A stretch of DNA of 64,000 nucleotides from an uncultured bacterium (GCA_965368975.1 CBDUPA010000012.1:1-64000), one strand, 5' to 3'. Shown: positions 1 through 51,469, numbered from the stretch's first letter. Made by a program: numbers and translations. Notes: generated by a model not told the origin, from the sequence alone.

Positions 1-64
1 AGCACAGGGGCGTCGAGTGGAGCGAGCACAGGGGCGTCGAGTGGAGCGAGCACAGAGGCGTCGA
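1..64 (+). repeat. 24-bp in-frame tandem repeat (HRGVEWSE x2.7) inside the NRPS
   Basis: agcacaggggcgtcgagtggagcg twice, then agcacagaggcgtcga. Confidence 0.9.
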
Positions 65-3000
65 CGACATCGCGGCGCACTGTGCGCGCTTGCGTCGGCG
101 GCCCTTCGACCTCGAGAACGGCCCCTTGCTGCGCGCCGACTTGGTGCACCCGACGGCGGGCGGTGAGGTGCTGGTGTTGACCTTGCCGGCCCTGTGCTGC
201 GACGCGCCGAGCTTGCGCCTGCTGGCGGCGCAACTGGCGCAGGAACTGGCGGCGGGGGCGAGCGCGGCGTCGGCGGACGAAGAGGAACTGCAGTACGCCG
301 ACCTCGCCGCCTGGTTCAACGAGCTGCTGCAAGCCGAGGAGACCGCCCCGGGCCGAGAGCACTGGCAGGCGCTGGAGCTCAGCGGCGTGCAGCCGGCGAC
401 GGTCGAGGCCGAGTTCACGCCGTGCTTCCTACGCTTGGCAGCGCCGCTGCAGCTGCCGCCCGAGATCGACGCCGCTGCCTTCCTGCTCGCCTGCTGGCAG
501 GGCGTGTTGCAGCGCCGCGGCATCGCCGGCCTGGGCAGCGAGCAGCCGGGGGTTCTCGGCTTTGCCGCCGATGGGCGCAAGTTCGCCGAACTTGAGGCCG
601 CCATCGGTCCGCTGACCCGCGTCGTGCCGCTGCCGCCTCTGCCGGCCACCGCGCGCACGCTGGCGCAGGCGCTGGCCGGTGCGGCGGACAGCGTCGCCCG
701 CGCCGTGCGCTTCCAGGACGCCTGTGCCTGGCAGGACCTGGACCTGCCGAGCTACCTGCCCGTGTGCCTCTTCCTGGAGACCCTGCAGCCCGCCCCCGAG
801 GGCGGGCTGCAGCCCGAGCCCGCGGCCGACTACGGCTTCGCCGAGCGCTTCGAGCTCTTGCTGCACGGTCGCCTGCAGACCACCGCCGCGGGGTGCCGGG
901 TCGAGCTCGAGTTGGGCTATGACGGCGCCCGCTTCGACGCGGCGGCGGCGGCGCGGCTGCGTGACGCCTTGGCGTGCTGGATGGATGCCGCGCTGGCGGC
1001 GGCCACGCGCACCCCTGCCGGCGGACCGGCCACGGCCGCGACCACGTTGTTGAGCGAGCTGCCGTGCCTCGGCGCCGCCGAATGGCAGCAGCTGTGCACG
1101 CTCGCCGGTGCCCCTGGGGCGCTAGCAGAAGCGGCGCTAGCACAAGCGGCGCTACCAGCGGTGCCCGCCGGAGTGGTCGAGCGCTTCGGCCAGGCGGTGC
1201 GCTTGCACCAGCAGCAGCCGGCGGTGCGCGACGGCAGCGACCAGCTGACCTATGGTGAACTGGCCCGCCGGGTACGACGCCTGGCGCGCCACCTGCGGGC
1301 GGCGGGGGTCGGAGCCGAGGTCGTGGTTGGCTTGGCCGCCGAGCGCCGGGTCGAGACGCTGCTCGTGCTGCTTGCCATCCTGGAAGCCGGCGGCGCGTAC
1401 CTGCCGCTGGATCCCGCTCTGCCGCAGGCTCGCCACCACGCCTTGCTGCACGCGGCAGGCGCGCGTTTCGTGGTCGGACGCGACCTGCCGGCGCTGCCGC
1501 CCGAGGTCGACGTCATCGACCTGCAAGCGCAGGCGGCAGCGATCGCGGCGCGGGATTCGAGCCCGCTCGACCTCGAGATCGATCCGCGTCAGCTGGCCTA
1601 CGTCCTCTTCACCTCCGGCTCCACCGGCCAGCCCAAGGGCGTGGCGGTCGAGCACCGGCAGCTGGCCGCCTACGTGGCCGCCGCCGAGCAGCGCCTCGAC
1701 TTCGGCCCGCCAGGGGAGCCTGGCGGCACGTTCGCCCTGGTGTCCAGCCTGGCGGCCGATCTCGGCAACACGATGATCTTTCCGGCCCTGTGCCGTGGTG
1801 GCTGCTTGCTGGTGGTGCCCGAGGCGACGATCTCGGACGCCAGCGCCCTGGCCGAGCTGTGCACCGCCGCGGCGGTCGACCACCTCAAGATCGTGCCCGG
1901 CCACCTGCAAGCCTTGCTCGAGGCACCGGGGGCCGAGCGCGTGCTACCGCGTCGGCGCCTGGTCTGTGGTGGCGAGGCGCTGCCGCCGCGTCTGCTCGAG
2001 CGCGTCGCCGAGCTGGCGCCCAGGACCCGCGTCTTCAACCACTACGGACCGACGGAGACGACAGTCGGCGTCGCGGCGGCGGAGATGGCGCCCGGCGATC
2101 CCGTGTCCCTGGGCCGGCCGCTGCCCGGGTGTCAGCTGTGGCTGGTCGATCGCCACCTGCGGCCGGTGGCGCTGGGCGCAAAGGGTGAGATCCTGGTCGG
2201 CGGCGCGCAGCTGGCGCGCGGCTATGCCGGTCGACCGGCCGCGACCGCCGCGCGCTTCGTGCCCGATGCGCTGGGCACCACTGCGCTGGGCACCACCGCC
2301 GGGGGGCGGCTCTACCGCACGGGTGACCTCGGTCGTCTGCGCGGCGACGGCGCTTTTGAGTTCCTGGGACGCACCGACAACCAGGTCAAGATCCGTGGCT
2401 ATCGCGTCGAGCTGGGCGAGGTGGAGAGCGCGTTGCGCCGGCTGCCCGGGGTGCGCGCCGCGGCCGCGCTGCTGCGCCGGGAGGGGCCGGCGGAACTGGT
2501 CGGGTATGTACACCTGGACAGCGAGGTTCACCTGGGGGACACCGCGCGCACGCCGGCCGAGCTGCGCGAACGGCTGGCGGCCGAGTTGCCGGACTACATG
2601 GTGCCGGCCGTCATCGTGCCGCTGGAGAGCTGGCCACGGACCGCCAACGGCAAGCTCGACCGCGCGGCTCTGCCGGCGCCGCCGCGCCCGAACCAGGCGG
2701 CGCACGAGCGGCCGCGCACGCCGGTGGAGGAGCAGGTGACGGAGCTGTGGCGGACGCTGTTCGAACGCGAGCAGATCGGTCTCGACGACGACTTCTTCGC
2801 CCTCGGCGGGCACTCGCTGCTGGCCATGCAGCTGACCGCGCGCCTGCGCCAGGCGTTGGGGGTCGAGCTGGCGGTCGACCAGGTGTTCCAGGCGCCGACA
2901 CCGCGTCTGCTGGCGCGTGCGGTGTCCACGGCGCTGAGCGCACAGGCTTCGTCGGCCGGCGGAGTCGAGGTGGCGCCGCCGATCGAGCGCCGGCCCGAGG

Positions 3001-4418
3001 GCGTCGCGATCCCTCTCTCGTTCGCCCAGGAGCGCCACTGGTTCTTGCAGCAGCTCGATCCGGCGAGCCCGCTCTACAACATCCGCGGTGCCTTGCGTGT
3101 GAAGGGGCCGCTCGACCTCGAAGTTCTGCGCACCTGTTTCGAACGGCTCGTCGAGCGCCACGAAGTCCTGCGCACGGCGTTTCCCAATACGGCCGCGGGG
3201 CCACGGCAGGAAGTCGTCGTCACGCCGCCGATGGCGCTGCCGCTGGTCGACTTCCAGCATTTCGAGGCGGCGGCGGAAGACCTGGCGATGGGGCTGGTGA
3301 CCCGCCTCGGCCTGGAACCCTTCGATCTCTGCCAGCCACCCTTGCTGCGCCTGCAGGCGCTGCGCCTGGCACCGCGTGAGCACCTGTTGGTGATCACCCT
3401 GCACCACATCGTCGCCGACCGCTGGGCTCTCGGCTTGCTGCAGCGCGAGCTGGCGGCGCTGTATCCGGCGCTGGTGGCCGGGCGGCCGTCGCCGCTGCCG
3501 CCGCTGCCGGTGCAGTACGCCGATTACGCCCACTGGCAGCGCGGCTGGCTGCGCGACGAGGTGCTCGAACACCAGCTGGATTGGTGGCGTCGAGAGCTGG
3601 CGGGTGCGCCACCGTTGCTGGAACTGCCGTTCGCACGTGCGCGACCGGCACGCCTGAGCGGTCGCAGCGGCCGCTGGCCGTTCCTGCTCGACGCCGAGAC
3701 CGCGGCCCGTCTCAAGCAGCTGGGCCGCGCGCAGGGCGCCACCTTCTTCCAGACGCTGCTGGCGCTCTTCCAGCTGCAGCTGCAAGGGCTGGTGGGGGCG
3801 GACGACGTGGTTGTCGGCTCGCCGGTCGCGGGCCGGGGGCAGGCCGAGACGGAGGATCTCGTGGGCTGCTTCATCAATGCCCTGGCCCTGCGCGCTCGCT
3901 TCGCCGAGGATCCCACGTTCCCGCAGCTGCTGGCGCAGGTGCGCGAGTCGCTGCTGGGGGCGTACCGCCACGCCCACCTGCCGTTCGAGCGCCTGGTGCA
4001 GGAGCTCAACCCTGAGCGCCAGGCCGGTGCCGCACCGGTTTTCCAGGTGGTGTTCAACTACGCTGACGCGCCGGTCGCCGCGCTCGACTTCGCGGGCTTG
4101 AGCTGGACGCCGCTGCGTCCCGAGAGCGTGTTCGACGCCAAGTACGACCTGGTCCTCGCCATGTTCGACAGCCCGGAAGGAGTGCGCTCTTTCCTGATCT
4201 ACAGCTTGGACCTGTTCGACGCCAGCGCCATGACGCGCATGGCCGAGCAGCTGTGTGCGCTCGCCGCGCGGCTCGTCGAGCATCCCGAGGCGCGGGTCTC
4301 GGAACTCACCGCAGCCCTGCGCCGCGACGAGCAGGCGTCGCGCCGGGACAGCGCCGAGCGCTTGCGCCAGCAACGAGGCAAGAAGCTCGCGGCGGCGCGC
4401 CGTCGCACGGTTCGCTAG
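1..4418 (+). CDS. NRPS, 5'-truncated by the window: interface (degenerate C) - A(Asp) - T - C
   Basis: The frame of ORF 90..4418 is open back to position 3 (HRGVEWSEHRGVEWSEHRGVDDIAAHCARL...), so the true start is outside the window. N-terminal C-like domain lacks HHxxxDG (LPALCCDA). A motifs YVLFTSGSTGQPKG, NHYGPTE, LYRTGDL. PCP FFALGGHSL. Terminal C domain HHIVADRW. Hand-read code DLTKVGHVGK is Asp-type. Confidence 0.93.
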   Translation, partial: HRGVEWSEHRGVEWSEHRGVDDIAAHCARLRRRPFDLENGPLLRADLVHPTAGGEVLVLTLPALCCDAPSLRLLAAQLAQELAAGASAASADEEELQYADLAAWFNELLQAEETAPGREHWQALELSGVQPATVEAEFTPCFLRLAAPLQLPPEIDAAAFLLACWQGVLQRRGIAGLGSEQPGVLGFAADGRKFAELEAAIGPLTRVVPLPPLPATARTLAQALAGAADSVARAVRFQDACAWQDLDLPSYLPVCLFLETLQPAPEGGLQPEPAADYGFAERFELLLHGRLQTTAAGCRVELELGYDGARFDAAAAARLRDALACWMDAALAAATRTPAGGPATAATTLLSELPCLGAAEWQQLCTLAGAPGALAEAALAQAALPAVPAGVVERFGQAVRLHQQQPAVRDGSDQLTYGELARRVRRLARHLRAAGVGAEVVVGLAAERRVETLLVLLAILEAGGAYLPLDPALPQARHHALLHAAGARFVVGRDLPALPPEVDVIDLQAQAAAIAARDSSPLDLEIDPRQLAYVLFTSGSTGQPKGVAVEHRQLAAYVAAAEQRLDFGPPGEPGGTFALVSSLAADLGNTMIFPALCRGGCLLVVPEATISDASALAELCTAAAVDHLKIVPGHLQALLEAPGAERVLPRRRLVCGGEALPPRLLERVAELAPRTRVFNHYGPTETTVGVAAAEMAPGDPVSLGRPLPGCQLWLVDRHLRPVALGAKGEILVGGAQLARGYAGRPAATAARFVPDALGTTALGTTAGGRLYRTGDLGRLRGDGAFEFLGRTDNQVKIRGYRVELGEVESALRRLPGVRAAAALLRREGPAELVGYVHLDSEVHLGDTARTPAELRERLAAELPDYMVPAVIVPLESWPRTANGKLDRAALPAPPRPNQAAHERPRTPVEEQVTELWRTLFEREQIGLDDDFFALGGHSLLAMQLTARLRQALGVELAVDQVFQAPTPRLLARAVSTALSAQASSAGGVEVAPPIERRPEGVAIPLSFAQERHWFLQQLDPASPLYNIRGALRVKGPLDLEVLRTCFERLVERHEVLRTAFPNTAAGPRQEVVVTPPMALPLVDFQHFEAAAEDLAMGLVTRLGLEPFDLCQPPLLRLQALRLAPREHLLVITLHHIVADRWALGLLQRELAALYPALVAGRPSPLPPLPVQYADYAHWQRGWLRDEVLEHQLDWWRRELAGAPPLLELPFARARPARLSGRSGRWPFLLDAETAARLKQLGRAQGATFFQTLLALFQLQLQGLVGADDVVVGSPVAGRGQAETEDLVGCFINALALRARFAEDPTFPQLLAQVRESLLGAYRHAHLPFERLVQELNPERQAGAAPVFQVVFNYADAPVAALDFAGLSWTPLRPESVFDAKYDLVLAMFDSPEGVRSFLIYSLDLFDASAMTRMAEQLCALAARLVEHPEARVSELTAALRRDEQASRRDSAERLRQQRGKKLAAARRRTVR

Positions 4419-4439
4419 CACCGTCGACGGACACGCCTT

Positions 4440-4487
4440 GCAGCACCAGAAGTCCGCAGCACCAGAAGTTCGCACAACAGAGTCCGC
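4440..4487. repeat. Intergenic 16-bp direct repeat (2 near-perfect copies, 1 degenerate)
   Basis: gcagcaccagaagtcc / gcagcaccagaagttc / gcacaacagagtccgc, between the NRPS stop and the hydroxylase start. Confidence 0.8.
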
Positions 4488-4508
4488 CAACCAGCCGAGG
4501 AGCGAGAG

Positions 4509-5561
4509 ATGAAAACGAAAGGCTCGATGAAGAAGAAGGGGCCCGGTGCCGTGCGCCGACGCGCGGTGACGGTGTCCACCGAGGACATGGTGCGCAAGAG
4601 CTACCTGGCCCCGGAGCAGACCCTGCCGCTGGTGGTCGAGGCGGCCACCGAAGGCCTCGACGTGATCGGCTGGGCGGCGGCCAACCGGGAGTGGGTCGAG
4701 CGCGAGTTGCTGGCCCATGGCGCCATCCTCTTCCGCAATGTCGGACTGGAGGACAGCGCAGCCTTCGAGCGCTTCTCGCGCACCGTCCTGCCGCACCGCG
4801 TCAACTATGTCGAGGGTTCGTCGCCGCGCATCTCCACCGGCGAGAAGGTCTACACCTCGACGGAGTACCCGGCCGAGGAGTTCGTCTCCATGCACAACGA
4901 GCTGTCCTACGCCCACAAGTGGCCGAGCAAGCTCATCTTCTACTGTGACGTCCAGCCCGCCGAAGGCGGTGAAACGCCGATCGCCGACAGCCGTGAGGTG
5001 CTACGCCGGCTCGCCCCGGACCTCGTCGAACGCTTCCGCCAGCGCGGCGTGCGCTACGTGCGCAACCTGCACGGCAGCCGCGGCGCCGGCCTGTCCTGGC
5101 AGACCGTGTTCGAGACCGAGGATCGTGACTTCGTCGAGCGCTACTGCACCGAGGGCGACATCCGCTTTCGCTGGACGGACAACGGAGGGCTGTGGACCGA
5201 GCAACTGCGGCCGGCCATCCGCCGCCACCCGGTCACCGGCGACGAAGTGTGGTTCAACCAGGTCGACCAATGGCATCCGTCCAACCTCACCGCCGAGGCA
5301 GCGCGCGTGCTGCTGGCCAGTCACGCGGTCGAAGACTTGCCGATCTGGTCGACCTTCGGCGACCAGGTCGCTTTCGACGACGCCGAGTTGGCGCAGATCC
5401 GCCAGGTGTTCGATGACGTGATGGTGCGCTTCCCCTGGCGCCAGGGAGACGCGTTGCTGGTCGACAACATGTTGGCTGCCCACGGCCGCATGCCCTTTGT
5501 CGGGCCGCGGCGTGTCCTGGTGGCCATGGGGGAATCCGGCCTCGAAGGTCAGGAGCTGTGA
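4509..5561 (+). CDS. TauD/TfdA-family Fe(II)/2-oxoglutarate dioxygenase, SyrP-like aminoacyl beta-hydroxylase
   Basis: HGAILFR, VYTSTEYP, H-x-E (MHNELSY), GGETPIAD, DNMLAAHGRMPF; RBS GAGGAG; lies between NRPS genes. Confidence 0.92.
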   Translation: MKTKGSMKKKGPGAVRRRAVTVSTEDMVRKSYLAPEQTLPLVVEAATEGLDVIGWAAANREWVERELLAHGAILFRNVGLEDSAAFERFSRTVLPHRVNYVEGSSPRISTGEKVYTSTEYPAEEFVSMHNELSYAHKWPSKLIFYCDVQPAEGGETPIADSREVLRRLAPDLVERFRQRGVRYVRNLHGSRGAGLSWQTVFETEDRDFVERYCTEGDIRFRWTDNGGLWTEQLRPAIRRHPVTGDEVWFNQVDQWHPSNLTAEAARVLLASHAVEDLPIWSTFGDQVAFDDAELAQIRQVFDDVMVRFPWRQGDALLVDNMLAAHGRMPFVGPRRVLVAMGESGLEGQEL

Positions 5562-5565
5562 ATCG

Positions 5566-8500
5566 ATGACGCAGACGCCAGCGCAGGGTAGTCTCGACGG
5601 GTTTCCACTATCGCCGCAACAGCGGCGCGCCTGGCGTGTCCTCGACGCCGGTGGTCCGGCGTGCGTGTGGACCGAGGTGAGCCTCGAGGGCGAGATCGAG
5701 GCGGCCGCCCTGGCGCGGGCGCTCGGTGACGTTGCCGAGCGCTGGGAGATCCTGCGCACGCGCTTCGCCCGCTTGCCGGGCATGGCGCTGCCGGTGCAGG
5801 TGATCGAGCCGCCGGCGCCGGTAGCGGTGCAGGAACAGGCCGTGGCCGGCGAGGCGCAGCTGCCGGAGCTGATCGGTATCTTGACCGCGACGGCACCCGC
5901 TGGCGACGCGGCGCCGCCGATCGCCTGTCACCTGGTGCGCACCGGTCCCGGCCGGGCGACCCTGCTGCTGCGCCTGTCACCGCTGATGGCCGACGGCACC
6001 GGACTCTCGTGCCTGGTCGACGAACTGGCCTCGAACCTCGGTCGCCAGCCGGCGGAGAGCGTGGAAGAAGAGGCGGAGATCCTGCAGTACGCTGACTTCG
6101 CCCAGTGGCAAAACGACGGGTTGACCGACGAAGACGGCGCCGAGGGACGGCAGCTGTGGCGCTCTTGCCCGTTGCCGGACGAGCTTCCGGAGCTGCCCTT
6201 CGAGCCGCCGTCGGTGGCGCCCGGTGCTGTCAGCACGCGTCGCCGCCAGCCGTTGCCGAAGGGCTGGGGCGCGCGTGCCGATGCGCTCGCCGAACAGCTC
6301 GACGTGCCCGTCGAGGCCGTCTTGCTGGCCGCCTGGCAGGTGCTCCTCGGGCGCGTCGCGGGTACCCGGCAGCCGCTCGTCTGGTGTGCGCTCGACGGCC
6401 GCGGCTACGACGAGCTGGAGCGCGCGCTCGGCCTCTACCACCGCTTCGTGCCGCTGATCGCCGATCTCGCGGCCACGGTGCGGACCCGCGACCTGATCGA
6501 GCGTCTGGGCGAGCGCCTGGAGGAGATGAGCCTGTGGCAGGAGTACCTGGCCTGGGACGTCGAGGATGCGGCCCCCGGCGAGGAGCCGCTGGAGCTACCC
6601 TGGGCGTTCGAGTCGACGGCGCTGCCGCTGCCGCGATCCGTGGCCGGCGTGCGCGTCGCGGTGCACCAGCAGGACGGCTGCGGTGAGCGCTGCGATCTGC
6701 GGCTGGCGGTCCACCGGGGCGAGCAGGGGCTGTCTGGCGAGCAGGAGCTGTCCGCCGACCTGTGGTTCGAGCACGCACGGCTCACCCCGGTCGCCGCCGA
6801 GCGCCTGGCCGAGAGCTTCGTCGCGCTGCTCGAACAGATCCTGGCCGAGCCCGAGCGGGCGCTGGCGGACCTCGACCTGCTGAGCCCGGCGCAGCGCCGG
6901 CAGGTGCTGCAGGAATGGGGGCACGGGCCGGCCGCCGAGGGGCCGCCGATCTCGGGCGTACCGGGCGTCGCCGAGCTGGTGCTGCGAGCCACGCAGGGCC
7001 GCGCTGACGCCATCGCCTACTGTCAGGGCGGCAGGGCGCTCAGCTACGGGGCCTTGGCGGCGCGCGTGGCGGCGCTGGCCGCCAACCTGCGGGACGCCGG
7101 CCTGCAACGCGAGGATCCGGTGGCGGTGTGCCTGCGTCGAGGTCCCGAGATGGCGGCGGCGTTCCTGGCGGTCCTGCGTGCCGGTGGCGTCGCCGTCGCG
7201 CTCTCTGCCGACCAGCCACCACGCCGGCTCGAGCGCGTGCTCGCGGACCTGCAGCCGCGCTGCATTCTGGCCGAAGAGGCGACCGTGCCGGCGCTGCCGC
7301 CCGGCGAGATCCCGCTGACGCTGGTCTCCTCCGTTCCCGTCGCGCCACTACCAGCAGCGCCAGAACCGGCGTTCCCGCCGCCGTTGCCGGAGCAGCTCGC
7401 CTACGTGGTCTACACCTCCGGCTCGCGCGGTGAGCCGAAGGGCATCGCCACGCCGCACAGTGGGGTGGTGAACTACCTGAGTCAGCTGGCGGGTGTCCTC
7501 GACCTGGGGCCGGGCGACTCCGTGCTGCAGCTGCCGGAACTCATCTATGACGCCTCGATGCGCGACCTGTGGACGCCCTTGCTGGGCGGCGCGCGCGTGG
7601 TGCTGGCCGAGGAAGCGCAGGTGCGCGATCCGGCGGCGCTGCTCGAGCTGATGCGGCTGCAGCGGGTCAGCGCCCTGCTGAGCGTCGTGCCGACGGTCCT
7701 GCGTGCACTGCTCGCTGCCGGCCGCGACAGCGTGCACGCGTGCCCGGCGGTGCACACCCTGCTGCTCAGCGGTGAGAAGCTGCGGCTCGAGGATGTCGAG
7801 GGGGCGCGCCGTCTGTTCGCGCCCGACGCCCGGGTGGTCAACCTCTACGGGCCGACCGAGGCCACCATGACCTCGACCGCCTACACGCTACCGCCCGCGG
7901 GTACCGCGCCCGCGGCGCACGCCGGCACGCTGGCGATCGGCCGTCCGATCACCGGGGTCGAGGTCTTCGTCACCGACGCCGCCGCGCGCCCGGTGCTGCC
8001 CGGCACGCCCGGTGAGGCGCTGATCGGTGGCGCCGGACTGGCCCGTGGCTACTGGCGGCAGCCGGCCCTCACGGCGGCCAGCTTCGGGCCCGATCCGTTC
8101 GCCACCGAGGCGGGGCGCCGGCTGCTGCACACCGGGGACCTGGTGCGCCACGACGACGGCGGCGAGCTGACGATCCTCGGCCGGCGCGATCAGCAGATCA
8201 AGCTGCGCGGCGTGCGCGTCGAACCGGGCGAGATCGAGGGCGAGCTGCGACGGCTCGACGGTGTGCGCGACGCGGTGGTGCTGGCACGCCAGGAGTCCGA
8301 GACCGCGCCGCCCTCGCTGACCGCCTGGGTGGTCACCGAGGATCCGCTGGCCGCCATCCCGCAGGACCAGCGCTACCAGCTGCCCAACGGCATGCCGATC
8401 CGCCACCTCAACCGCTACGAGACCGACTTTTTCTACCAGCAGATCTTCGAGGATCGGGTGGACGTCAAGAGCGGCTTGGATTTGCCACCCGGGGCCGTGG

Positions 8501-11118
8501 TGTTCGACGTCGGTGCCAACATCGGCCTGTTCAGCCTCTATGCCCACCTGGCGCAAGACGACGTACGCCTGTTCGCCTTCGAGCCGATCCCGGAGACCTG
8601 CGCGGTGCTGCGCAGCAACCTCGAACTCTACGGTGCGGCGGCCCACGTCGAGTCCTGCGGCCTGTCCAACCGCAGCGGCTCGGTGCGCTTCGCCTACTAC
8701 CCGCTGTCCTCCTGCCAGAGCGGCTACTATCCCGACGAGTCGCAAGAGCGCTACATGTTGGAAGCGATCATCGAGCGCCAGAGCAGCGATCCGGAAGCCT
8801 TCTCGCTGGCGCGCGACTACTTCTCCGACCTGGTCGACCGGCGCATGCAGCGGCAGATGATCGACTGCCCGCTCAAGACGGTGTCGCAGGTGGTGGCGGA
8901 GCACGGGCTGGAGCACATCGACCTGCTCAAGATCGACGTCGAGAAGAGTGAGCTCGACGTGCTCGAGGGCGTGCGCGACGAAGACTGGCCGAAGATCCGC
9001 CAGCTGTCAATCGAAGCCCACGACCTGGAGGGGCGCCTGGACGACATCACGCGCCTGCTCGAAGCCCGCGGCTACCGCGTCACGGTGCAGCAGGAAGACG
9101 CGCTGCTCGACGAGACCTGTCTGTTCAACGTCTATGCCGCGCGCCGGAGCGCCGACGCGTCCACCGACGCCGCGCCGCCAGCGCCGCGACTGCCGCAGCA
9201 CCTGCTCGCGGGCCGGCCGGATGCCGAGGCGCTGCGCCGGGCGCTGGCCGAGGTGCTGCCCGAGACGCTGGTGCCGGCGTCCTTCGTGCTGCTCGACACG
9301 CTGCCACGGACGCCGGGAGGCAAGGTCGACGCGCGGGCGCTGCCGGAGCCGGAAGCGGTGTCGATGCCCGGCGTGGTGCGCGACGAACCGACGCCGGCCG
9401 AAGAGATCGTCAGCGGTATCTTCGCCGACCTGCTGCAGCGTGAACGCCTGGGGCTGGACGACGATTTCTTCGTCCTGGGAGGCCATTCGCTACTCGCCAC
9501 CCAGGCCGTGCTGCGCATCCAGCAGGCCTTCGAGGTCGACCTGCCGCTGCAGAAGCTGTTCGAATTGCCGACCGTCCGCGCCCTGACGCGAGCGGTGACC
9601 GCCGCCACCGAGCAGCGCCGTGGCCAGGCGCTGCCGCCGCTGGTGGCGGTGAGCGAGCACGAGGATCTGCCGCTGTCCTACGAGCAGCAGCGCCTGTGGT
9701 TCCTGGACCAGCTGCGCCCGGGCGACCCGGCGTTCAACATCCCTGGCGCTCTGCGCGTCACGGGACCGCTGGCGGTGCCGGTGCTGCACCGAGCGCTCGC
9801 CGCCCTGGTGGCCCGCCACGCCTCGCTGCGCACGCACTTCACCAGCGGTCCGGACGGCCTGCCGCGGCAGGTGATCCGCCCGGCGATTCTGTCTCAGGAG
9901 AGGTCTCAGGAGAGGTCTCTACCGTTGCCGCTGGTCGATCTGCGCGCGCTGCCCGAGGCGCAGCGCCGGCCGCAGGGCGAACAGCTGCTGGCCCGTGCCG
10001 CCCAGCACCGCTTCGAGCTGGCCCGCGGTCCGCTGTTCCGCGGCCTGCTGCTGCGCGAGGCGCCGGACGTCCACGCTCTCCATCTCAACCTGCACCACAT
10101 CGTTGGCGACGCCTGGTCCAACGGCATCCTGGTGCGCGAGCTGGCGGCCCTGGTCGACGCTTTCGGCCGCGGCTTGCCGTCACCGCTACCCGAGCTGCCG
10201 ATCCAGTACGCCGACTACGCCCACTGGCAGCGGCAGTGGCTGCAGGGCGAGGTCCTCGACCAGCTGGTCGACTCGTGGCGCCGCACCCTGGAGGGAGCTC
10301 CGCCGCGCATCGAGCTGCCGCTGGATCGGCCGCGGGGTTCCGGCGTGCGCGGCGGCAGCCACCTGTTGGAGCTACCGACCTCGGTCGCCGACCGTCTCGA
10401 CGCGCTCGGCCGGAGCCACCAGTGCAGCCTGTTCATGACCCTGCTGGCGGCGCTCGACGTCACCTTGCACAGCTACAGCGGCGCTACCGACCTGGTGGTC
10501 GGAGCGGACGTCGCCCATCGCAGCCGGGTCGAGACCGAAGCCTTGATCGGCTTCTTCGTCAACCAGATCGTGCTGCGTGTCGATCTGGGCGGGGATCCCT
10601 CCTTCGCCGAGTTGCTGGCCCGGGTGCGCAAGGTGGCGCTGAGTGCCTACGAGCGGCAGGACCTGCCGTTCGACCGGCTGGTCGAGGTGATCAATCCGGA
10701 TCGCGACGCCCACCACGCGCCGATTTTCCAGGTCAAGCTGGTGGTGCAGAACACGCCTCCGGCGGCGCTGTCGCTGGGCGGCGGACTGGCGGTCGAGGTG
10801 GTGCCGGCGGCACCGCGCGCGGCGGCCGAAGACCTGTTGGTCAACGCCCTGCGCGGCGCCAACGGGCTGAGCTTGAACTTCAAGTACAACGCCGAGCTGT
10901 TCTTGGCCTCGACCATCGAGGGGCTGGCGCAGCGCCTGGCCCGGGTGCTCGAAGCGGCCGCCGCCGCACCGGCGATCCCGCTGAGCGAGCTGGTGAGCCA
11001 GGTACAGGCGGCCGAGCGCGAGCGCCAGTCGCGGCAGGCCGAGCAACGCGGCGCCGCGCTTGGGAGCAAGCTGCAGAAGGTGCGCCGCCGTGCGGCGCGG
11101 CCGGAGACGCTCAGTTGA
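5566..11118 (+). CDS. NRPS: interface - A (interrupted by FkbM-type methyltransferase) - T - C
   Basis: ATG 5566 after AGGAG is preferred over the track start 5497. N-terminus GFPLSPQQ with degenerate SPLMADG. A motifs YTSGSRGEPKG, NLYGPTE. Insert ~8350-9210 with FDVGANIG, AFEP, LLKIDVEKSE. PCP FFVLGGHSL. Terminal C domain HHIVGDAWS. Confidence 0.93.
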   Translation: MTQTPAQGSLDGFPLSPQQRRAWRVLDAGGPACVWTEVSLEGEIEAAALARALGDVAERWEILRTRFARLPGMALPVQVIEPPAPVAVQEQAVAGEAQLPELIGILTATAPAGDAAPPIACHLVRTGPGRATLLLRLSPLMADGTGLSCLVDELASNLGRQPAESVEEEAEILQYADFAQWQNDGLTDEDGAEGRQLWRSCPLPDELPELPFEPPSVAPGAVSTRRRQPLPKGWGARADALAEQLDVPVEAVLLAAWQVLLGRVAGTRQPLVWCALDGRGYDELERALGLYHRFVPLIADLAATVRTRDLIERLGERLEEMSLWQEYLAWDVEDAAPGEEPLELPWAFESTALPLPRSVAGVRVAVHQQDGCGERCDLRLAVHRGEQGLSGEQELSADLWFEHARLTPVAAERLAESFVALLEQILAEPERALADLDLLSPAQRRQVLQEWGHGPAAEGPPISGVPGVAELVLRATQGRADAIAYCQGGRALSYGALAARVAALAANLRDAGLQREDPVAVCLRRGPEMAAAFLAVLRAGGVAVALSADQPPRRLERVLADLQPRCILAEEATVPALPPGEIPLTLVSSVPVAPLPAAPEPAFPPPLPEQLAYVVYTSGSRGEPKGIATPHSGVVNYLSQLAGVLDLGPGDSVLQLPELIYDASMRDLWTPLLGGARVVLAEEAQVRDPAALLELMRLQRVSALLSVVPTVLRALLAAGRDSVHACPAVHTLLLSGEKLRLEDVEGARRLFAPDARVVNLYGPTEATMTSTAYTLPPAGTAPAAHAGTLAIGRPITGVEVFVTDAAARPVLPGTPGEALIGGAGLARGYWRQPALTAASFGPDPFATEAGRRLLHTGDLVRHDDGGELTILGRRDQQIKLRGVRVEPGEIEGELRRLDGVRDAVVLARQESETAPPSLTAWVVTEDPLAAIPQDQRYQLPNGMPIRHLNRYETDFFYQQIFEDRVDVKSGLDLPPGAVVFDVGANIGLFSLYAHLAQDDVRLFAFEPIPETCAVLRSNLELYGAAAHVESCGLSNRSGSVRFAYYPLSSCQSGYYPDESQERYMLEAIIERQSSDPEAFSLARDYFSDLVDRRMQRQMIDCPLKTVSQVVAEHGLEHIDLLKIDVEKSELDVLEGVRDEDWPKIRQLSIEAHDLEGRLDDITRLLEARGYRVTVQQEDALLDETCLFNVYAARRSADASTDAAPPAPRLPQHLLAGRPDAEALRRALAEVLPETLVPASFVLLDTLPRTPGGKVDARALPEPEAVSMPGVVRDEPTPAEEIVSGIFADLLQRERLGLDDDFFVLGGHSLLATQAVLRIQQAFEVDLPLQKLFELPTVRALTRAVTAATEQRRGQALPPLVAVSEHEDLPLSYEQQRLWFLDQLRPGDPAFNIPGALRVTGPLAVPVLHRALAALVARHASLRTHFTSGPDGLPRQVIRPAILSQERSQERSLPLPLVDLRALPEAQRRPQGEQLLARAAQHRFELARGPLFRGLLLREAPDVHALHLNLHHIVGDAWSNGILVRELAALVDAFGRGLPSPLPELPIQYADYAHWQRQWLQGEVLDQLVDSWRRTLEGAPPRIELPLDRPRGSGVRGGSHLLELPTSVADRLDALGRSHQCSLFMTLLAALDVTLHSYSGATDLVVGADVAHRSRVETEALIGFFVNQIVLRVDLGGDPSFAELLARVRKVALSAYERQDLPFDRLVEVINPDRDAHHAPIFQVKLVVQNTPPAALSLGGGLAVEVVPAAPRAAAEDLLVNALRGANGLSLNFKYNAELFLASTIEGLAQRLARVLEAAAAAPAIPLSELVSQVQAAERERQSRQAEQRGAALGSKLQKVRRRAARPETLS

Positions 11119-11171
11119 GAGGCCAGTTAGATGGGCAGTTGAGAGGCCAGTTGACATGGCCGTTGAACGGA
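11112..11171. repeat. 12-bp-period direct repeat x5, starting over the NRPS stop codon
   Basis: cagttgagaggc / cagttagatggg / cagttgagaggc / cagttgacatgg / ccgttgaacgga. Confidence 0.8.
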
Positions 11172-11239
11172 GTCATCGAAGAATGTCCGCCGCGGTGGCC
11201 TTGCCGCCAGCCGGACCCACAGGAGAAAGGATCGCTATC

Positions 11240-12295
11240 ATGAGCCTCACTGGTCCCCGCAAGAAGAGCCTCGCCGGTCCCGGCGGCGGTCGCCGCAAGG
11301 GCGTCAGCCTGGCGCAGGAGAGCACCATCAAGACCCGCGAACTGGCGCCCGGCGAGTCGCTGCCGCTGGTGGTCGAACCCGCGGTTCCCGGCGTCGAACT
11401 GCTGGCCTGGGCCGAGCACCACCGCGATTTCATCGAGCAGAAGATCCTGCTGCACGGCGGTGTCCTGTTCCGCGGCTTCGACGTTCGTTCGATCCCGGAC
11501 TTCGAGCGCTTCATCGCCATCGCCTCTGGCGGCGCGCTGGAGTACAAATACCGGTCGTCGCCGCGCACCTCGGTGGGGGAGAACATCTACACCTCGACCG
11601 ACTACCCGGCCGACCAGAGCATCTTCCCGCACAACGAGCACTCCTACTCGCCGAGCTTCCCGCTGCGCCTGTTCTTCTTCTGCGTCACGCCCGCGGCTAC
11701 CGGTGGTGAGACGCCGCTGGGCGACTGCCGCAAGATCCTGGCGCGCATCGATCCCGAGATCCGCGACGAGTTCAAGGCCAAGGGCATCATGTACGTGCGC
11801 AACTTCGGCGACGGTTTCGGCTTGCCCTGGCGCACCGTCTTCCAGACCGACGACCCGGCCGAGGTCGAGGCCTACTGCCAGGCGCAAGGGCTGAACGCCG
11901 AGTGGAAGGACGGCGATCGTCTGCGCACGCGGCGCGTCGGACCGGCGATCTTCCAGCACCCGCGCACGGGGGAGGAGCTGTGGTTCAACCACGCCGCCTT
12001 CTACCACTGGACGACCCTCGAACCGACCGCCCGCGAGCAGCTGTCGCGGGTCTTCGCCGAGGACGAGATGCCCAACAACACCTTCTATGGCGACGGCACG
12101 CCGATCTCGCCCGAGGTGGCCGAGCACCTGCGCCGCGCCTACCTCGACGAGCTGGTGGTCTTCCCCTGGCAGACCGGCGACCTGCTGGCGCTCGACAACA
12201 TGCTGGCGATCCATGCGCGTAACCCCTACGGCGGCGCGCGCAAGGTGGTGGTCGGCATGGCGGAACAGCTCAACGCCGAGGACCTGGTGTCTTGA
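11240..12295 (+). CDS. Second TauD/SyrP-like aminoacyl beta-hydroxylase
   Basis: ATG 11240 after AGGAGAAAGGA. HGGVLFRGF, IYTSTDYP, PHNEHSY, GGETPLGD, DNMLAIHARNPY; paralogous to 4509..5561. Confidence 0.92.
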   Translation: MSLTGPRKKSLAGPGGGRRKGVSLAQESTIKTRELAPGESLPLVVEPAVPGVELLAWAEHHRDFIEQKILLHGGVLFRGFDVRSIPDFERFIAIASGGALEYKYRSSPRTSVGENIYTSTDYPADQSIFPHNEHSYSPSFPLRLFFFCVTPAATGGETPLGDCRKILARIDPEIRDEFKAKGIMYVRNFGDGFGLPWRTVFQTDDPAEVEAYCQAQGLNAEWKDGDRLRTRRVGPAIFQHPRTGEELWFNHAAFYHWTTLEPTAREQLSRVFAEDEMPNNTFYGDGTPISPEVAEHLRRAYLDELVVFPWQTGDLLALDNMLAIHARNPYGGARKVVVGMAEQLNAEDLVS

Positions 12296-12344
12296 TCCAG
12301 GGCCCTGATCGCGATTTCGACGGCACATACTTGGAGGGCGATTG

Positions 12345-29717
<17,373 letters not shown>

Positions 29718-29750: not shown

Positions 29751-31451
29751 GTGAGACAAGTTGTCCGGTTCCTCTTGCGCTATTCGCGCGCCTCGACCCT
29801 GGCGGCCATCGGGCTGGGGTTGATCAGCGGTGCCTGTGCCTCGGCCGTCGTGGCCCTGGTCACCCAGGCGATCAGCGAAACCGACCCGGAGCAGAAGCAG
29901 ATACAGCTGCTCACCTTCATCGCGGTCGGTATCGCCCTGCCGATCACTGCCGTGCTCACCCAGTACCTGCTCGGCCGCACCAACCAGCGGGCGGTGCTCG
30001 CGCTGCGCCGGGAACTGGTGCGGCGCTTGCTCGACCTACCGCTGCGCCAGCTGGAAAACCTGGGCGCCAACCGCCTGATCACCTTCCTCACCCAGGACAT
30101 CAGCAGCATCTCCGGCTCCATCGTCATGATGTCGACGCTGCTGATCAACAGCACCTTCGTCATCGGCATGCTGGCCTACCTGATCTGGATCTCCTGGCAA
30201 GGCTTCCTGGTCATGCTCGGCGTCATCCTGCTGGTCATGATCACGCAGCGCATCCCGTCGCGCGCCGTGTCGCGACTGCTGCGCAAGGTTCGCGTGGTCT
30301 CGGACGAACTCTACGACCAGTTCCGAGCGCTGATCTTCGGCAACAAGGAACTCAAGGTGCACCAGGATCGCCGCCAGGCCTTCTACGCCGACTTCGACCA
30401 GACCGCCAAGGCCCTGTGCGATGGCAACGTGCGTGCGGTCACCCTGATGATGGTGGCCAGCAGCTGGTACCGCCTGCTGATCCTGAGTCTCGTCGGTGTG
30501 CTGGTCTTTGGTCCTTTCGACCTGCTGCAGTTCGATTCCGAGAAGATGACGCTGTTCATCCTCATCGTCTTCGTGGTCGGCAATCTCGTGCAGCAGTTCA
30601 ACAACAATGCGACTTCCATCACCACCGCCGGCGTGGCGCTGGACAAGCTCGGCGACCTGGGCTTCTCGCTCGAAGTCACGCAGCCGGCGGCGGCTCTCTC
30701 TGCACCGGCTCTCTCCTCGGCGGCTCTCTCCTCGGCGGCCCTCTCCTCGGAAGATGCGCCGCGCCGCGAAGTCCCGCCGTGGCGGCGCATCGAGCTGTGC
30801 GGCGTCACCCATGCCTACCGCCGCGAGGATCGGCCGGAAGTCGAGAACTTCAGCATCGGTCCGATCGATCTGACCTTCGAGCCGGGGCAGTTGGTGATCC
30901 TGGCCGGCGGCAACGGCAGTGGCAAGACCACGTTGGCCAAGCTGCTGGTCGGTCTCTACGCGCCGGAGTCGGGTGTCATCCGGGTCGATGGCCAGGAGAT
31001 CGGCGAGGCCGAGCGTGACGCCTACCGTCAGCACTTCTCGGTCGTCTTTTCCGACTTCTTCCTCTTCGACCGTCTGCTCGGCTTCGACGCGACCCAGGTC
31101 GACGAGCACGCCCAGCAGTACTTGCACAAGCTGCAGCTGGATCACAAGCTCGATATCCAGCAAGGCGTGTTCTCGACCACCGACCTGTCGCAGGGCCAGC
31201 GCAAGCGCCTGGCGCTGTTGACCAGCTACATCGAAGATCGCTCGTTCTACGTCTTCGACGAGTGGGCTGCCGATCAAGACCCGCTGTTCAAGCGCTTCTT
31301 CTACGAGGAGTTGTTGCCCGAGCTCAAGCAGCGCGGCAAGATGGTCCTGGCCATCAGTCACGACGACCACTACTACCACGTCGCGGATCGCATCATCCGG
31401 CTGGACTACGGCAAGGTCGAAGCCATCGAAGAAGCAGGGGAGACAGGATGA
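29751..31451 (+). CDS. Cyclic peptide export ABC transporter, SyrD/PvdE family
   Basis: N-terminal TM domain, Walker A GGNGSGKTT, LSQGQRKRLALL and the family motif FDEWAADQDP. Confidence 0.93.
   Translation: MRQVVRFLLRYSRASTLAAIGLGLISGACASAVVALVTQAISETDPEQKQIQLLTFIAVGIALPITAVLTQYLLGRTNQRAVLALRRELVRRLLDLPLRQLENLGANRLITFLTQDISSISGSIVMMSTLLINSTFVIGMLAYLIWISWQGFLVMLGVILLVMITQRIPSRAVSRLLRKVRVVSDELYDQFRALIFGNKELKVHQDRRQAFYADFDQTAKALCDGNVRAVTLMMVASSWYRLLILSLVGVLVFGPFDLLQFDSEKMTLFILIVFVVGNLVQQFNNNATSITTAGVALDKLGDLGFSLEVTQPAAALSAPALSSAALSSAALSSEDAPRREVPPWRRIELCGVTHAYRREDRPEVENFSIGPIDLTFEPGQLVILAGGNGSGKTTLAKLLVGLYAPESGVIRVDGQEIGEAERDAYRQHFSVVFSDFFLFDRLLGFDATQVDEHAQQYLHKLQLDHKLDIQQGVFSTTDLSQGQRKRLALLTSYIEDRSFYVFDEWAADQDPLFKRFFYEELLPELKQRGKMVLAISHDDHYYHVADRIIRLDYGKVEAIEEAGETG
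30688..30750 (+). repeat. 15-bp in-frame repeat x4 (AALSA/PALSS/AALSS/AALSS) in the exporter linker
   Basis: gcggctctctctgca ccggctctctcctcg gcggctctctcctcg gcggccctctcctcg. Confidence 0.85.
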
Positions 31452-47218: not shown

Positions 47219-47467
47219 TGTGCGTCCCCCTGTGCGGATGGATAGGTAGTCGATTTGCCAGTGACGCTACCACGATGCACACCGCCGTCTGGTCATCCTC
47301 GGGAGGCTCCAGAGCAAGGCAGGACTATCAAACCGTCGGAAGTTCCATGGGGAAACGTTGTCTGATCCCGACCGCAGCTGCGCCTTCACGTGCAAGCGTG
47401 GATCTTTGAGATAAGGTCTGACCCATCGAACACGCTTCAAGCGCAGACTCGCCGAGCCGGAGATCCC

Positions 47468-49474: not shown

Positions 49475-50775
49475 CCTGGCAATCCTGGAGGGAGGATGTT
49501 CCCGCAGACTGGCAGGTAGTGCCCTTACGCGCAGTTGCTGCCTACCGTGTCAGCAACGTCGACAAGCTCAAGAAGGAGGATGAGTTACCTGTAAGGCTAT
49601 GTAACTACGTGGACGTCTACCACAATGAATTCATTGACCTCGGGCTCGATTTCATGGAGGCGACTGCGACTCCTGAAGAGATTCAGAGATTCAAAGTACG
49701 TCGAGGTGACGTGATCATCACCAAGGATTCCGAGTCTTGGGACGATATTGCCGTCCCTGCTTTGGTGCGTGAGTCGGCAAGAGACTTGGTTTGTGGCTAC
49801 CATTTGGCTCAGATTCGGCCACGAGCAGACCGGCTGGATGGTGCGTTTCTGTTCAGATGTTTGCAGGCCAAGCCGATCCGACTGTCTCTGGAACTGGCAG
49901 CGAATGGCGTGACGAGATTCGGTCTGCCAAAGAGTGCAATCGGAGACACAGCTCTACCAGTTCCACCCCTCGCCAGCCAGCGCGCCATCGCCGACTTCCT
50001 GGACACCGAAACCGCCCACATCGACGCCCTGATCGCCGCCAAGCAAGACCTGCTCGACCTGCTGGCCGAAAAGCGCCGCGCCCTGATCATCGAAGCCGTC
50101 ACGCGGGGGCTCGATCCGGATGTGCCGATGAAGGACTCGGGGGTGCCGTGGTTGGGGGAGATTCCGGCGCATTGGGTCGTGGAAAAGGCTAGGTGGCTCT
50201 TCAGACTTAAGGAAGTTCGGTCGAACTCTGGAGAGGAAGAGCTTCTAACTGTTTCTCATATTACAGGGGTTACCCCTAGATCCGAGAAAGAGGTAAATAT
50301 GTTTGAAGCTGCGTCTACGGTTGGTTATAAAGTCTGTAACCCAGGGGATTTGGTGATCAATACGATGTGGGCTTGGATGGGGGCCATGGGTGTTGCCCCA
50401 TGCTTGGGCATCGTTAGCCCGTCCTACCATGTGTATGAAGTCGGCCCCAACTTTATTCCGGGCTATATTGATGAACTCGTCCGAACTCAGAACTTTGCGG
50501 ATGAAGTAGCGCGCTATTCCAAGGGGGTTTGGTCCTCACGCCTTCGCCTCTATCCAGAAGGCTTTCTTGGCGTCCACTTTCCCGTACCCCCTGTAGATGA
50601 ACAGTTTTCAATCTTAGAGAGCTTACGGGATGAGTTGTCGCGTATCGATAGGCTAAGTGCGGCGGTATCAGGCAGTCTGACTTTTCTCCAAGAACGCCGC
50701 GAAGCCCTCATCGCCGCCGCCGTCAACGGCCAGCTCGACCTGGGAGACTTCGAAGCCGAGGCGAACCCGGCCTGA
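49471..50775 (+). CDS. hsdS: Type I RM specificity subunit S
   Basis: GTGA overlap with the hsdM stop; two TRDs separated by PPLASQRAIADFLD...AVTRGLDPDVPMKDSGVPWLGEIPAHW; terminal ALIAAAVNGQLD. Confidence 0.93.
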   Translation: MTWQSWREDVPADWQVVPLRAVAAYRVSNVDKLKKEDELPVRLCNYVDVYHNEFIDLGLDFMEATATPEEIQRFKVRRGDVIITKDSESWDDIAVPALVRESARDLVCGYHLAQIRPRADRLDGAFLFRCLQAKPIRLSLELAANGVTRFGLPKSAIGDTALPVPPLASQRAIADFLDTETAHIDALIAAKQDLLDLLAEKRRALIIEAVTRGLDPDVPMKDSGVPWLGEIPAHWVVEKARWLFRLKEVRSNSGEEELLTVSHITGVTPRSEKEVNMFEAASTVGYKVCNPGDLVINTMWAWMGAMGVAPCLGIVSPSYHVYEVGPNFIPGYIDELVRTQNFADEVARYSKGVWSSRLRLYPEGFLGVHFPVPPVDEQFSILESLRDELSRIDRLSAAVSGSLTFLQERREALIAAAVNGQLDLGDFEAEANPA

Positions 50776-50805
50776 CGCAGTCGCGACCGCGCCGAGCCGA
50801 CAGCC

Positions 50806-51285: not shown

Positions 51286-51469
51286 CACTCTTTCTCTTTC
51301 CTTCTGGCCGCACTCAATTCAATTCCTGGACTACTAGCCACTGTAACAGGTCACCCTGCTCGAGACGTCCAAAAACATCGGCTCTAGCAGACCCAGGCAA
51401 GGGCCATCGACCGGGAGAGATTCGGTGAGTCTGATGCCTCACCGGCCAGCTTGCAGTAAAGTCGAATGG

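Follow-up and report, generated by a model that had tools for sequence, protein, structure and literature searches.

Predicted lipopeptide synthetase cluster with interface-type hydroxylation units and an in-line methyltransferase in an uncultured soil acidobacterium

Gene content and layout of the cluster

The window described here is a 64,000-nucleotide stretch of DNA from an uncultured soil acidobacterium (CBDUPA010000012.1:1-64000, contig C12 of the genome G000; G000:C12:1-64000). Five closely spaced plus-strand genes, O1 to O5, fill positions 3 to 29717, and the G+C content is ~70 to 74% across the first 30 kb. O1, O3, and O5 encode nonribosomal peptide synthetases (NRPSs), and O2 and O4 encode stand-alone TauD-family hydroxylases; the domain assignments in the window are strong profile matches and not chance (Table 1). 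Together with a front half located on a second contig, these genes would form one lipopeptide NRPS line with interface hydroxylation units, and we consider it probable that its product is a metallophore.

The first base of the window is also a contig end, and this end falls within a 24-bp tandem repeat (2.7 copies). Its nucleotides 1 to 54 are 100% identical to the minus strand of C14:1-54, with the frame kept, and the 108-aa open frame that leaves C14 ends in the initial peptide repeat of O1. Moreover, our profile of interface domains is matched at positions 2 to 83 on the C14 fragment (C14:325-2, minus strand), where the O1 gene start and first ~90 residues are located, and at positions 80 to 422 on the O1 N terminus in the window. 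From the in-frame 54-nt identity and the complementary profile coverage, we infer that C14 and C12 are adjacent. The repeat at the breakpoint encodes HRGVEWSE repeated (window 1-64). Short in-frame tandem repeats (periods 9, 12, 15, 18, and 24) are frequent in the synthetase genes of window 1-34000, where they appear as duplicated loop peptides such as SQER, PLSEE, and LGTTA (each x2).

On C14, all of the cluster genes lie on the minus strand, and the window holds the distal part of the line. The fatty acyl-AMP ligase (FAAL)-acyl carrier protein (ACP) gene has the expected AMP-binding and PP-binding architecture, with FAAL model scores of 362 to 388 bits, under the NCBIfam cut-offs. Directly after it, U2 opens with a condensation (C) domain carrying HHIVFDG, followed by an adenylation (A) domain with the code DGFSHAVTT, for which we found no matching code. 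The first module of U2 would supply the residue whose carbonyl enters the thiazole. Further along U2 come a heterocyclization (Cy) domain with the DxxxxDxxS motif, an A domain with the Cys-type code DLYNLSMIW, an oxidase (Ox) domain of the nitroreductase family, a carrier (T) domain, and a C domain (HHIVGDA). In U3, an Asp-coded A domain precedes an epimerization (E) domain (motifs HHLVVDG and RTVGWF) and a terminal C domain (HHLLLEG), whose N terminus we take to resemble the D-donor type. The TauD gene T0 stops three bases before the start of O1.

The full cluster is ~55 kb long, lies on two contigs, and has ten modules; judged by its domains, the assembly line is one of ten modules plus a lipid starter and not of seven modules. 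An earlier note on this DNA, made from the window, had described the N-terminal part of the peptide as not visible; it is found on C14 and comprises a lipid starter and the modules predicted to form the thiazole and to install D-Asp. The same note had seen no epimerase, which holds within the window, where E domains and dual E/C motifs are both absent, and fails upstream, where U3 carries an E domain. Each catalytic C domain in the window has one HHxxxD motif, and the module sizes leave no extra room. Dual E/C domains were considered for the window and rejected, the second HH motif being absent. The residues from O1 onward are therefore predicted to be L configured.

Table 1. Features of the cluster and its borders (positions without a contig name are those of the window)
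Feature	Location	Strand	Evidence or remark
Flavin oxidoreductase (Pyr_redox_3), 514 aa	C14	-	
FAAL-ACP	C14	-	AMP-binding + PP-binding architecture
U2, 2923 aa	C14:7635-16406	-	C-A-T-Cy-A-Ox-T-C
U3, 2117 aa	C14	-	Interface-type (PALISDA)-A (DLTKVGHVG)-T-E-C
T0, third TauD gene	C14:322-1431	-	TauD 2.3e-47
O1	3-4418	+	Open at contig start; Condensation 6.8e-99 (2 stretches), AMP-binding 4.2e-76, PP-binding (Pfam)
O1 interface-type domain, C-terminal 4/5	3..1004	+	PALCCDA replaces HHxxxDG
O1 A domain, Asp code	1110..2663	+	DLTKVGHVG(K)
O1 T domain	2727..2939	+	PP-binding 4.3e-17; GGHSL motif
O1 C-terminal catalytic C domain	2958..4304	+	HHIVADR; predicted to join residue 4 to residue 5
O2, stand-alone TauD-family hydroxylase	4509..5561	+	TauD 7.2e-44 (Pfam)
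O3	5497-11118, likely ATG 5566	+	ATG 5 nt past the O2 stop; Condensation 8.4e-112 (2 stretches), AMP-binding 1.9e-71, Methyltransf_21/FkbM 8e-18, PP-binding
O3 interface-type domain	5566..6852	+	SPLMADG replaces HHxxxDG
O3 A core, substrate X	6895..8238	+	DAR[L/S]LSLMT(K)
O3 FkbM-family methyltransferase insert	8506..9081	+	Methyltransf_21 8e-18; TIGR01444 9.9e-28
O3 A10 motif (PRTPGGK) and T domain	9304..9612	+	
O3 C-terminal catalytic C domain	9613..10989	+	HHIVGDA
O4, stand-alone TauD-family hydroxylase	Open frame 11060-12295, likely ATG 11240	+	TauD 1.4e-41
O5, 5791 aa	12342-29717	+	5 C, 5 A, 5 T, thioesterase
O5 interface-type domain	12345..13685	+	AAAVADG replaces HHxxxDG
O5 module 1 A-T, His code	13725..15695	+	DSALIAEVW(K)
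O5 module 2 C-A-T, Thr code	15726..19100	+	DFWNIGMVH(K)
O5 modules 3-5, C-A-T x3, Val/Ile-like	19107..28862	+	DGFFVGGTF, DAFFLGATF, DPFFLGGVF
O5 terminal thioesterase	28932..29684	+	Thioesterase 3.2e-35
ABC exporter, cyclic-peptide (PvdE/SyrD-like) type	29751..31451	+	TIGR01194, 419.7 bits versus cut-off 286.2
ADOP-family duplicated MacB-like permease	31457..33865	+	TIGR03434 4.8e-237
TonB-dependent receptor, N-terminal CarboxypepD_reg	33966..36830	-	Convergent to the cluster
Second TonB-dependent receptor	G000:C14:20839-23886	+	Opposite cluster end; 55% identical to the first

Interface domains, hydroxylases, and substrate codes

The catalytic HHxxxDG motif is replaced in the N-terminal C-like domains of U3, O1, O3, and O5 (Table 1). 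The active-site consensus of 44 external His-less domains is LPALCAD, which O1 and U3 nearly match. Every C-type domain of the cluster was scored with two profiles, one made of 42 external His-less domains (the interface profile) and the other of 60 external catalytic C domains. The four His-less domains reach 170 to 284 bits with the interface profile and 66 to 143 bits with the catalytic-C profile (O1, 169.8 versus 65.6; O3, 283.9 versus 129.0; O5, 250.5 versus 142.8). For the remaining C-type domains the order is reversed in 10 of 10 cases (270 to 463 bits with the catalytic-C profile versus 57 to 227 with the interface profile; 430.7 versus 188.4 for the C-terminal C domain of O1). The C domains upstream of the last three His-less domains keep catalytic motifs, namely, HHLLLEG in U3, HHIVADR in O1, and HHIVGDA in O3. 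The gene order C / TauD / interface occurs three times, and the C domain of U2 is followed by the His-less domain of U3 with no TauD gene between them. We therefore read the N-terminal domains of U3, O1, O3, and O5 as interface domains, a name reportedly coined by Reitz et al. in 2019, and the modules of O1, O3, and O5-1 as instances of the C / TauD / interface-A-T unit known from siderophore synthetases.

The available parts of two sources (PMC12230676, PMC12971057) present interface domains, as well as the IBH_Asp, TBH_Asp, and IBH_His classes of hydroxylase, as established and as built into antiSMASH; the second source lists IBH_His as a metallophore marker. Predicted as a complex, O4 and the O5 interface domain scored 0.26 against a mark of 0.32, which speaks neither for nor against binding. 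A PDB sequence search returned no interface-domain or hydroxylase complex, the best matches being the Txo1/Txo2 C domains and At3g21360.

Every alignment column without variation among 45 relatives is conserved in T0, O2, and O4, including two His, one Glu, and two Arg residues, presumably the iron and 2-oxoglutarate ligands; NCBIfam holds no equivalog for any of the three. Among public genomes we counted 595 TauD relatives and fetched the best 80 loci, many of them cyanobacterial, with 97 TauD domains. In 54 of these 97, an A domain follows after 1200 to 1700 nt with a His-less C-like domain in between, and the TauD is frequently fused to the C domain ahead of it; the other domains are followed by an ordinary C domain (11), directly by an A domain (15), by the sequence end (16), or by something else (1). 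After the 54 His-less domains, the A domain carries an Asp-type code 43 times, DSALIAEVW 5 times, an Asn-type code twice, and another code 4 times. Because more than half of the related TauDs sit before a His-less domain and an A domain, a hydroxylase normally precedes its module.

A recurrent arrangement among the fetched loci is a TauD domain with an A domain 8 to 227 nt later and no C-like domain, the codes being of the DMIGFGCL[FL] type. This conserved pair was seen in Pandoraea, Bradyrhizobium, Nitrobacter, Methylobacterium, Marinobacter, and a methanotroph (loci L036, L037, L043, L044, L064, L067, L071, L072, L077, L079, L082, and L084).

A quick maximum-likelihood tree, built from 100 TauD domains without profile matches of <200 positions, places O4 with four Pseudomonas TauDs that precede DSALIAEVW modules (SH-aLRT 83). 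Identity to the Pseudomonas brassicacearum TauD in that position is 57% for O4, 50% for T0, and 43% for O2. T0 adjoins a proteobacterial clade (SH-aLRT 92) and lies between the recognized clades, and O2 is divergent, at <=43% identity to any relative compared. The grouping with TauDs of His modules suggests that O4 is an IBH_His-type hydroxylase. From its species name, we presume the P. brassicacearum locus compared (L083, from another isolate) to be the published ornicorrugatin biosynthetic gene cluster (BGC). P. brassicacearum DSM 13227 is reported, in the accessible text of PMC12971057, to make ornicorrugatin from a histicorrugatin-like BGC.

On the basis of the gene order at external loci and the tree position of O4, we provisionally assign T0 to O1 (Asp), O2 to O3 (residue X), and O4 to the first module of O5 (His). 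The reverse arrangement, in which each TauD would serve the module before it (T0 the Asp of U3, O2 the Asp of O1, and O4 residue X, with His left unhydroxylated), could explain why four interface domains face three TauDs and why T0 comes directly after U3, and gene order alone cannot settle which module is served. We regard it as improbable, given the 54 related TauDs immediately before a His-less and an A domain, often fused to the C domain ahead of them, and the closeness of O4 to TauDs that lie ahead of His modules; moreover, it would leave the O5 interface domain purposeless. With TauDs paired to the module that follows, the β-hydroxylation of Asp, X, and His put forward in the earlier note is supported, each of these modules starting with an interface-type domain preceded by a TauD gene. 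Two TauD genes are present in the window; the TauD of the Asp module, T0, lies on C14, and the two visible enzymes could not have served three residues. T0 may serve both U3 and O1, whose A domains have equal 9-residue codes. A fourth TauD domain of the genome (C17:82602-83615) closes a 5351-aa open frame and is integrated in a second, separate synthetase; no A domain was detected within the following 5 kb on the same strand.

The specificity codes were read from a profile of the cluster's ten A domains, whose alignment, anchored on the FDxS, TPS, GGE, and NxYGPTE motifs, gives nine of the ten specificity positions, the anchors being taken to correspond to positions 235 to 331. The A10 lysine was detected by motif in 5 of 7 A domains of the window. 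All seven codes that had been read by hand (O1, O3, and O5 modules 1 to 5) were reproduced by the alignment. The sole difference concerns position 278 of O3, where a one-residue insertion makes L and S equally defensible. The residue order proposed on that basis, Asp - X - His - Thr - three aliphatic, is likewise supported by the codes.

According to the parts of the published code lists available, DLTKVGHVGK is an Asp code that also occurs in some Asn domains (PMC12283262), DFWNIGMVH(K) a Thr code (PMC7256872, PMC12283262), and DAKDLGVVD a Glu code (PMC7256872). DSALIAEVW was found after a TauD and a His-less domain in five loci, four from Pseudomonas and one from a cyanobacterium. The A domains of O5 modules 3 to 5 are mutually 56 to 60% identical. 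Since their codes resemble but none equals the published Val/Ile codes, of the xxxWIGGTFK types (PMC12283262), we call these three residues only Val/Ile-like. Our literature search matched DSALIAEVWK and DAKDLGVVD and gave no printed match for the code of X or the three aliphatic codes.

The in-line methyltransferase and residue X

In O3, the A8 motif (GRRDQQIKLRG) lies at residue 895, a match to FkbM at residues 1004 to 1195, and the A10 motif (PRTPGGK) at residue 1270. The FkbM domain carries FDVGANIG, which fits the S-adenosylmethionine (SAM) motif DVGx(N/H)xG. Type II M domains are defined, in the text available from PMC8341866, by an a8-a9 insertion and this SAM motif, and in biochemical work two of them, KtzH and ColG, transferred a methyl group to the oxygen of carrier-bound Ser. 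The motif, the insertion site, and the FkbM match suggest that O3 is a KtzH/ColG-like type II interrupted A domain. The second A domain of the window thus contains an FkbM-type methyltransferase; the β-O-methylation of X proposed in the earlier note would follow from the SAM motif and the a8-a9 site.

We compared this arrangement with 400 other genomes of the phylum; G000 is the sole member of its family in the whole collection. Full-length A8-M-A10 matches occur in 10 published genomes (one unpublished genome was left out), and the interrupted A domains have Asp-type (5), Glu-type (2), Gln-type (1), Thr (3), and Ser (1) codes and the code SSRDLAMGI (1). G256, from the same order as G000, has two Glu-type (DAKDLGVVD) units consisting of a TauD, a His-less domain, and an A+M domain, and a Gln-coded module with a His-less domain and A+M; in G137, a TauD immediately precedes A+M. 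Our literature search found no paper describing a TauD/interface unit with an in-line O-methyltransferase, most subscription journals being outside that search.

The methyl group could be destined for an atom other than the β-oxygen, for instance, that of the side-chain carboxylate, so that X would be a β-hydroxy-X methyl ester or similar. What keeps this reading alive is that in three genomes (G322, G194, and G174) an Asp-coded A+FkbM domain follows an ordinary HHxxxD C domain, with no TauD within the 12 kb read; these modules point either to methyl-esterified Asp or to a hydroxylase gene at another genomic site. In addition, Arg239 in the code of X suggests a carboxylate or carboxamide side chain. 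We nevertheless judge this outcome rather unlikely. The M domains of this type that were tested biochemically methylate the Ser β-hydroxyl on the carrier (PMC8341866, text available in part), the same insert occurs in Ser- and Thr-coded modules of the phylum, and it is accompanied by a TauD and a His-less domain twice in G256 and by a TauD in G137. A trans-acting hydroxylase may also exist elsewhere in G322, G194, and G174. The Asp-coded interrupted synthetases are those of loci L103 (G322:C8), L104 (G194:C163), and L105 (G174:C104).

The code of X keeps Asp235, which points to an α-amino acid substrate, and has Arg at position 239. A database search with the O3 A domain gave 5603 proteins at E<=1e-30, the best 120 all being <=43% identical, and by BLAST none of 276 A domains of related loci exceeded 40% identity. 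The codes extracted from these best matches include a loose family, D-x-R-x-L-[SA]-[QL]-x-[TS], from uncharacterized proteins behind ordinary C domains, which yields no substrate for X. Among the published codes accessible, DPRHLALLAK stands for 2-aminoadipate, DPRHVSLLAK for an Asn domain (PMC12283262), and the Glu code has Lys at position 239 (PMC7256872). Because of Arg239, these R/K codes, and the Glu- and Gln-coded TauD/interface/M units of G256, our best guess is that X bears a carboxylate or carboxamide (Glx, Asx, or aminoadipate); the chances seem to us even, and we offer it as a guess and not as an assignment.

Tentatively, and with less than even confidence, we propose that O2/O3 constitute an undescribed on-line β-methoxy cassette for acidic or amide residues, recurring in Acidobacteriota, and that in G000 it is part of the first acidobacterial lipopeptide metallophore to combine thiazole, β-hydroxy-Asp, and β-hydroxy-His. 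If true, the methyl cap may tune the number of oxygens offered to the metal.

Predicted product, possible role, and known systems

The line is predicted to start with FAAL-ACP and U2 (starter C-A [DGFSHAVTT]-T-Cy-A [Cys]-Ox-T-C), to continue with U3 (interface-A [Asp]-T-E-C), T0, O1 (interface-A [Asp]-T-C), O2, O3 (interface-A [X, in-line O-methyltransferase]-T-C), and O4, and to end with O5 (interface-A [His]-T, four C-A-T modules for Thr and three Val/Ile-like residues, and a thioesterase [TE]). By analogy with known units, the interface domain heading a synthetase would recruit the stand-alone Fe(II)/2-oxoglutarate hydroxylase, which would β-hydroxylate the aminoacyl thioester on the carrier domain of that module, and peptide bond formation would then fall to the catalytic C domain that ends the preceding synthetase. 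By the same kind of analogy, the KtzH-type methyltransferase within the O3 A domain would methylate the new β-hydroxyl. The expected product is an N-acyl decapeptide, acyl-X1-thiazole-D-Asp(possibly OH)-βOH-Asp-βOMe-X-βOH-His-Thr-(Val/Ile-like)3. Thr four residues from the end would permit lactone release, and the TE may release the peptide as a small Thr lactone. The sequence itself shows the genes and their order, the domains and codes, the lost catalytic histidines, and the relatedness to other loci, whereas the substrates, the hydroxylations, the site of methylation, the product, and its role are predictions. Export could proceed via the adjacent ABC and ADOP transporters and uptake via the flanking TonB-dependent receptors.

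We lean toward an amphiphilic metallophore of the corrugatin/cyanochelin kind, for which metal binding appears plausible. This preference comes from the ligand types, from the two 55% identical receptors at the cluster ends, and from the siderophore loci in which the nearest relatives of the hydroxylases are encoded. Corrugatins and cyanochelins draw their ligands from the types β-hydroxy-Asp, β-hydroxy-His, and thiazol(in)e, as described in the parts of the sources at hand (PMC12971057; bioRxiv 10.64898/2026.07.24.740629). The NRP-metallophore rule, as worded in PMC12971057, asks for a chelating-substructure pathway inside an NRPS cluster; here, TauD/interface units for Asp and His lie inside an NRPS cluster, as judged from the A codes, the TauD tree, and the interface profile. 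The receptors have only four close paralogues in the genome, counting themselves, and two flank the cluster; the other two are a tandem pair at the start of C17, beside unrelated genes and with no BGC.

The same line could instead make a membrane-active or calcium-dependent lipopeptide, an antibiotic or surfactant like syringomycin or A54145, in which the acidic hydroxylated residues would bind Ca2+ or a target and no metal would be carried. A lipid starter (FAAL-ACP and a presumed starter C domain) is present; Thr, a hydrophobic C-terminal block, and a TE are the usual layout of a lipodepsipeptide; a SyrD-type ABC transporter and a MacB-like permease are also typical of such compounds; and the methoxy group would block one chelating oxygen. 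β-Hydroxy-Asp hydroxylases are moreover mentioned, in the available text of PMC12971057, for lipopeptides that are not metallophores, turnercyclamycin and the syringomycin family among them. We hold this product to be less likely than a metallophore. Among the best 80 loci, β-hydroxy-His units were seen only in ornicorrugatin-type loci and one cyanobacterium, two paralogous TonB-dependent receptors bracket the cluster, and the thiazole, the two Asp-derived residues, and His would make a plausible hexadentate set.

Several observations nonetheless speak against a methoxylated metallophore made by this line, in addition to the Asp-coded A+FkbM modules and the possibility of methylation at another atom discussed above. 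The receptors are CarboxypepD_reg/Oar-like, and a close relative occurs in 0 of 5 other genomes with TauD clusters. A search for inverted repeats in three intergenic stretches gave no Fur-box-like palindrome, and exporters of these types would suit a non-siderophore lipopeptide just as well. With X O-methylated, the product would have one potential metal ligand fewer. Neither the best 120 proteins nor the 276 A domains compared include an informative neighbor of the O3 A domain. Four interface domains face three TauDs, and the Asp of U3 may or may not be hydroxylated. The TauD tree is a quick version, and the placement of O2, on a branch of length 1.8, is unsure.

On C14, the first cluster gene and the receptor diverge from each other, and the G+C content falls to 44 to 60% in the stretch that separates them (L113 1793-2520, equal to G000:C14:20292-21019), where repeated TAGTTTGT / ACAAACTA-type half-sites possibly form an operator. 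The only MbtH-like gene of the genome (G000:C24:19128-19277) lies outside the cluster, a location that matters for expressing the A domains. The rest of the window appears unlinked to the cluster and encodes TPR, FG-GAP/ASPIC, sulfatase, and patatin proteins, a type I restriction system, a class I tRNA synthetase, and an ABC-2 transporter. The type I restriction-modification genes (HsdM and HsdR, with a Fic-like gene between; window 47390-55644) are 18 kb beyond the cluster, and HsdR-like and TIR-domain genes lie on its other side (L010 5877-11308; G000:C14:25877-31308).

At E<=1e-40, 15 of the 400 other phylum genomes, one of them unpublished, have TauD relatives. In the 14 published ones, the codes downstream of TauD at 19 loci are Asp-type, Asn-type, or other; the His code, and with it a further β-hydroxy-His unit, was found at none of them. 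No O3 or O4 orthologue of >54% identity, and no second copy of the cluster, was found in the genomes searched. NRP-metallophore regions are given for 9 of 836 Acidobacteriota genomes in the available part of PMC12971057. We know of no natural product isolated from this class of uncultured Acidobacteriota. The cluster offers a complete, testable prediction that names which enzyme should act where. It is also a system for studying interface-hydroxylase pairing, with three different pairs and one partnerless interface domain in one line, and for asking whether a KtzH-type in-line methyltransferase accepts a hydroxyl freshly installed on the same carrier.

One close counterpart of the cluster is the interface-domain unit of siderophore NRPSs, which has the same catalytic C domain, then a TauD, then a His-less domain heading A-T, and uses Asp and His as substrates. 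The present cluster differs in having a gene of its own for each of the three hydroxylases and four consecutive interface modules for only these three enzymes; moreover, one unit combines substrate X with an in-line methyltransferase, and the host is an acidobacterium. The ornicorrugatin/histicorrugatin clusters of Pseudomonas (L063, L075, L083, and L090) likewise specify a lipopeptide and contain a TauD, a His-less domain, and an A domain with the identical code DSALIAEVW. Their interface domains, however, are only ~27% identical to ours, the peptide sequence differs, and in the stretch read these loci have no thiazole module, methyltransferase, or hydrophobic tail.

Cyanochelins, as described in the accessible part of bioRxiv 10.64898/2026.07.24.740629, share with the predicted product the FAAL-primed acyl group, the first residue, a Cy-made heterocycle at position 2, and two β-hydroxy-Asp residues made with interface domains. 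In cyanochelin C the heterocycle is a methyloxazoline from Thr, whereas here Cys and an oxidase would give a thiazole; that account of cyanochelin C contains no His unit, O-methylation, or hydrophobic tripeptide, and release is reductive, unlike the TE release expected here.

For the methylation step, KtzH and ColG (family 2a; PMC8341866, in the parts available) provide the same a8-a9 insertion and SAM motif, and methylate the β-oxygen of a carrier-bound amino acid; the known members act on Ser/Thr, which bring their own hydroxyl, whereas here a TauD working via the interface domain would have to install it first. The chemistry has a precedent in cystobactamid CysH/CysJ/CysQ. According to the available text of PMC7966384, CysJ places a β-hydroxyl on the Asn bound to CysH, which CysQ then O-methylates; both are trans-acting enzymes that work on a separate module containing an AMDH domain, from which the unit is shuttled to the line. 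O3, in contrast, has a cis methyltransferase and a hydroxylase predicted to pair with an interface domain, and the two systems are likened by chemistry and not by sequence. The core design of the cluster, an NRPS lipopeptide line with interface-domain hydroxylation units, is already known; less ordinary are the joining of a TauD/interface unit to an in-line O-methyltransferase and the predicted β-hydroxy-His unit in an acidobacterium.

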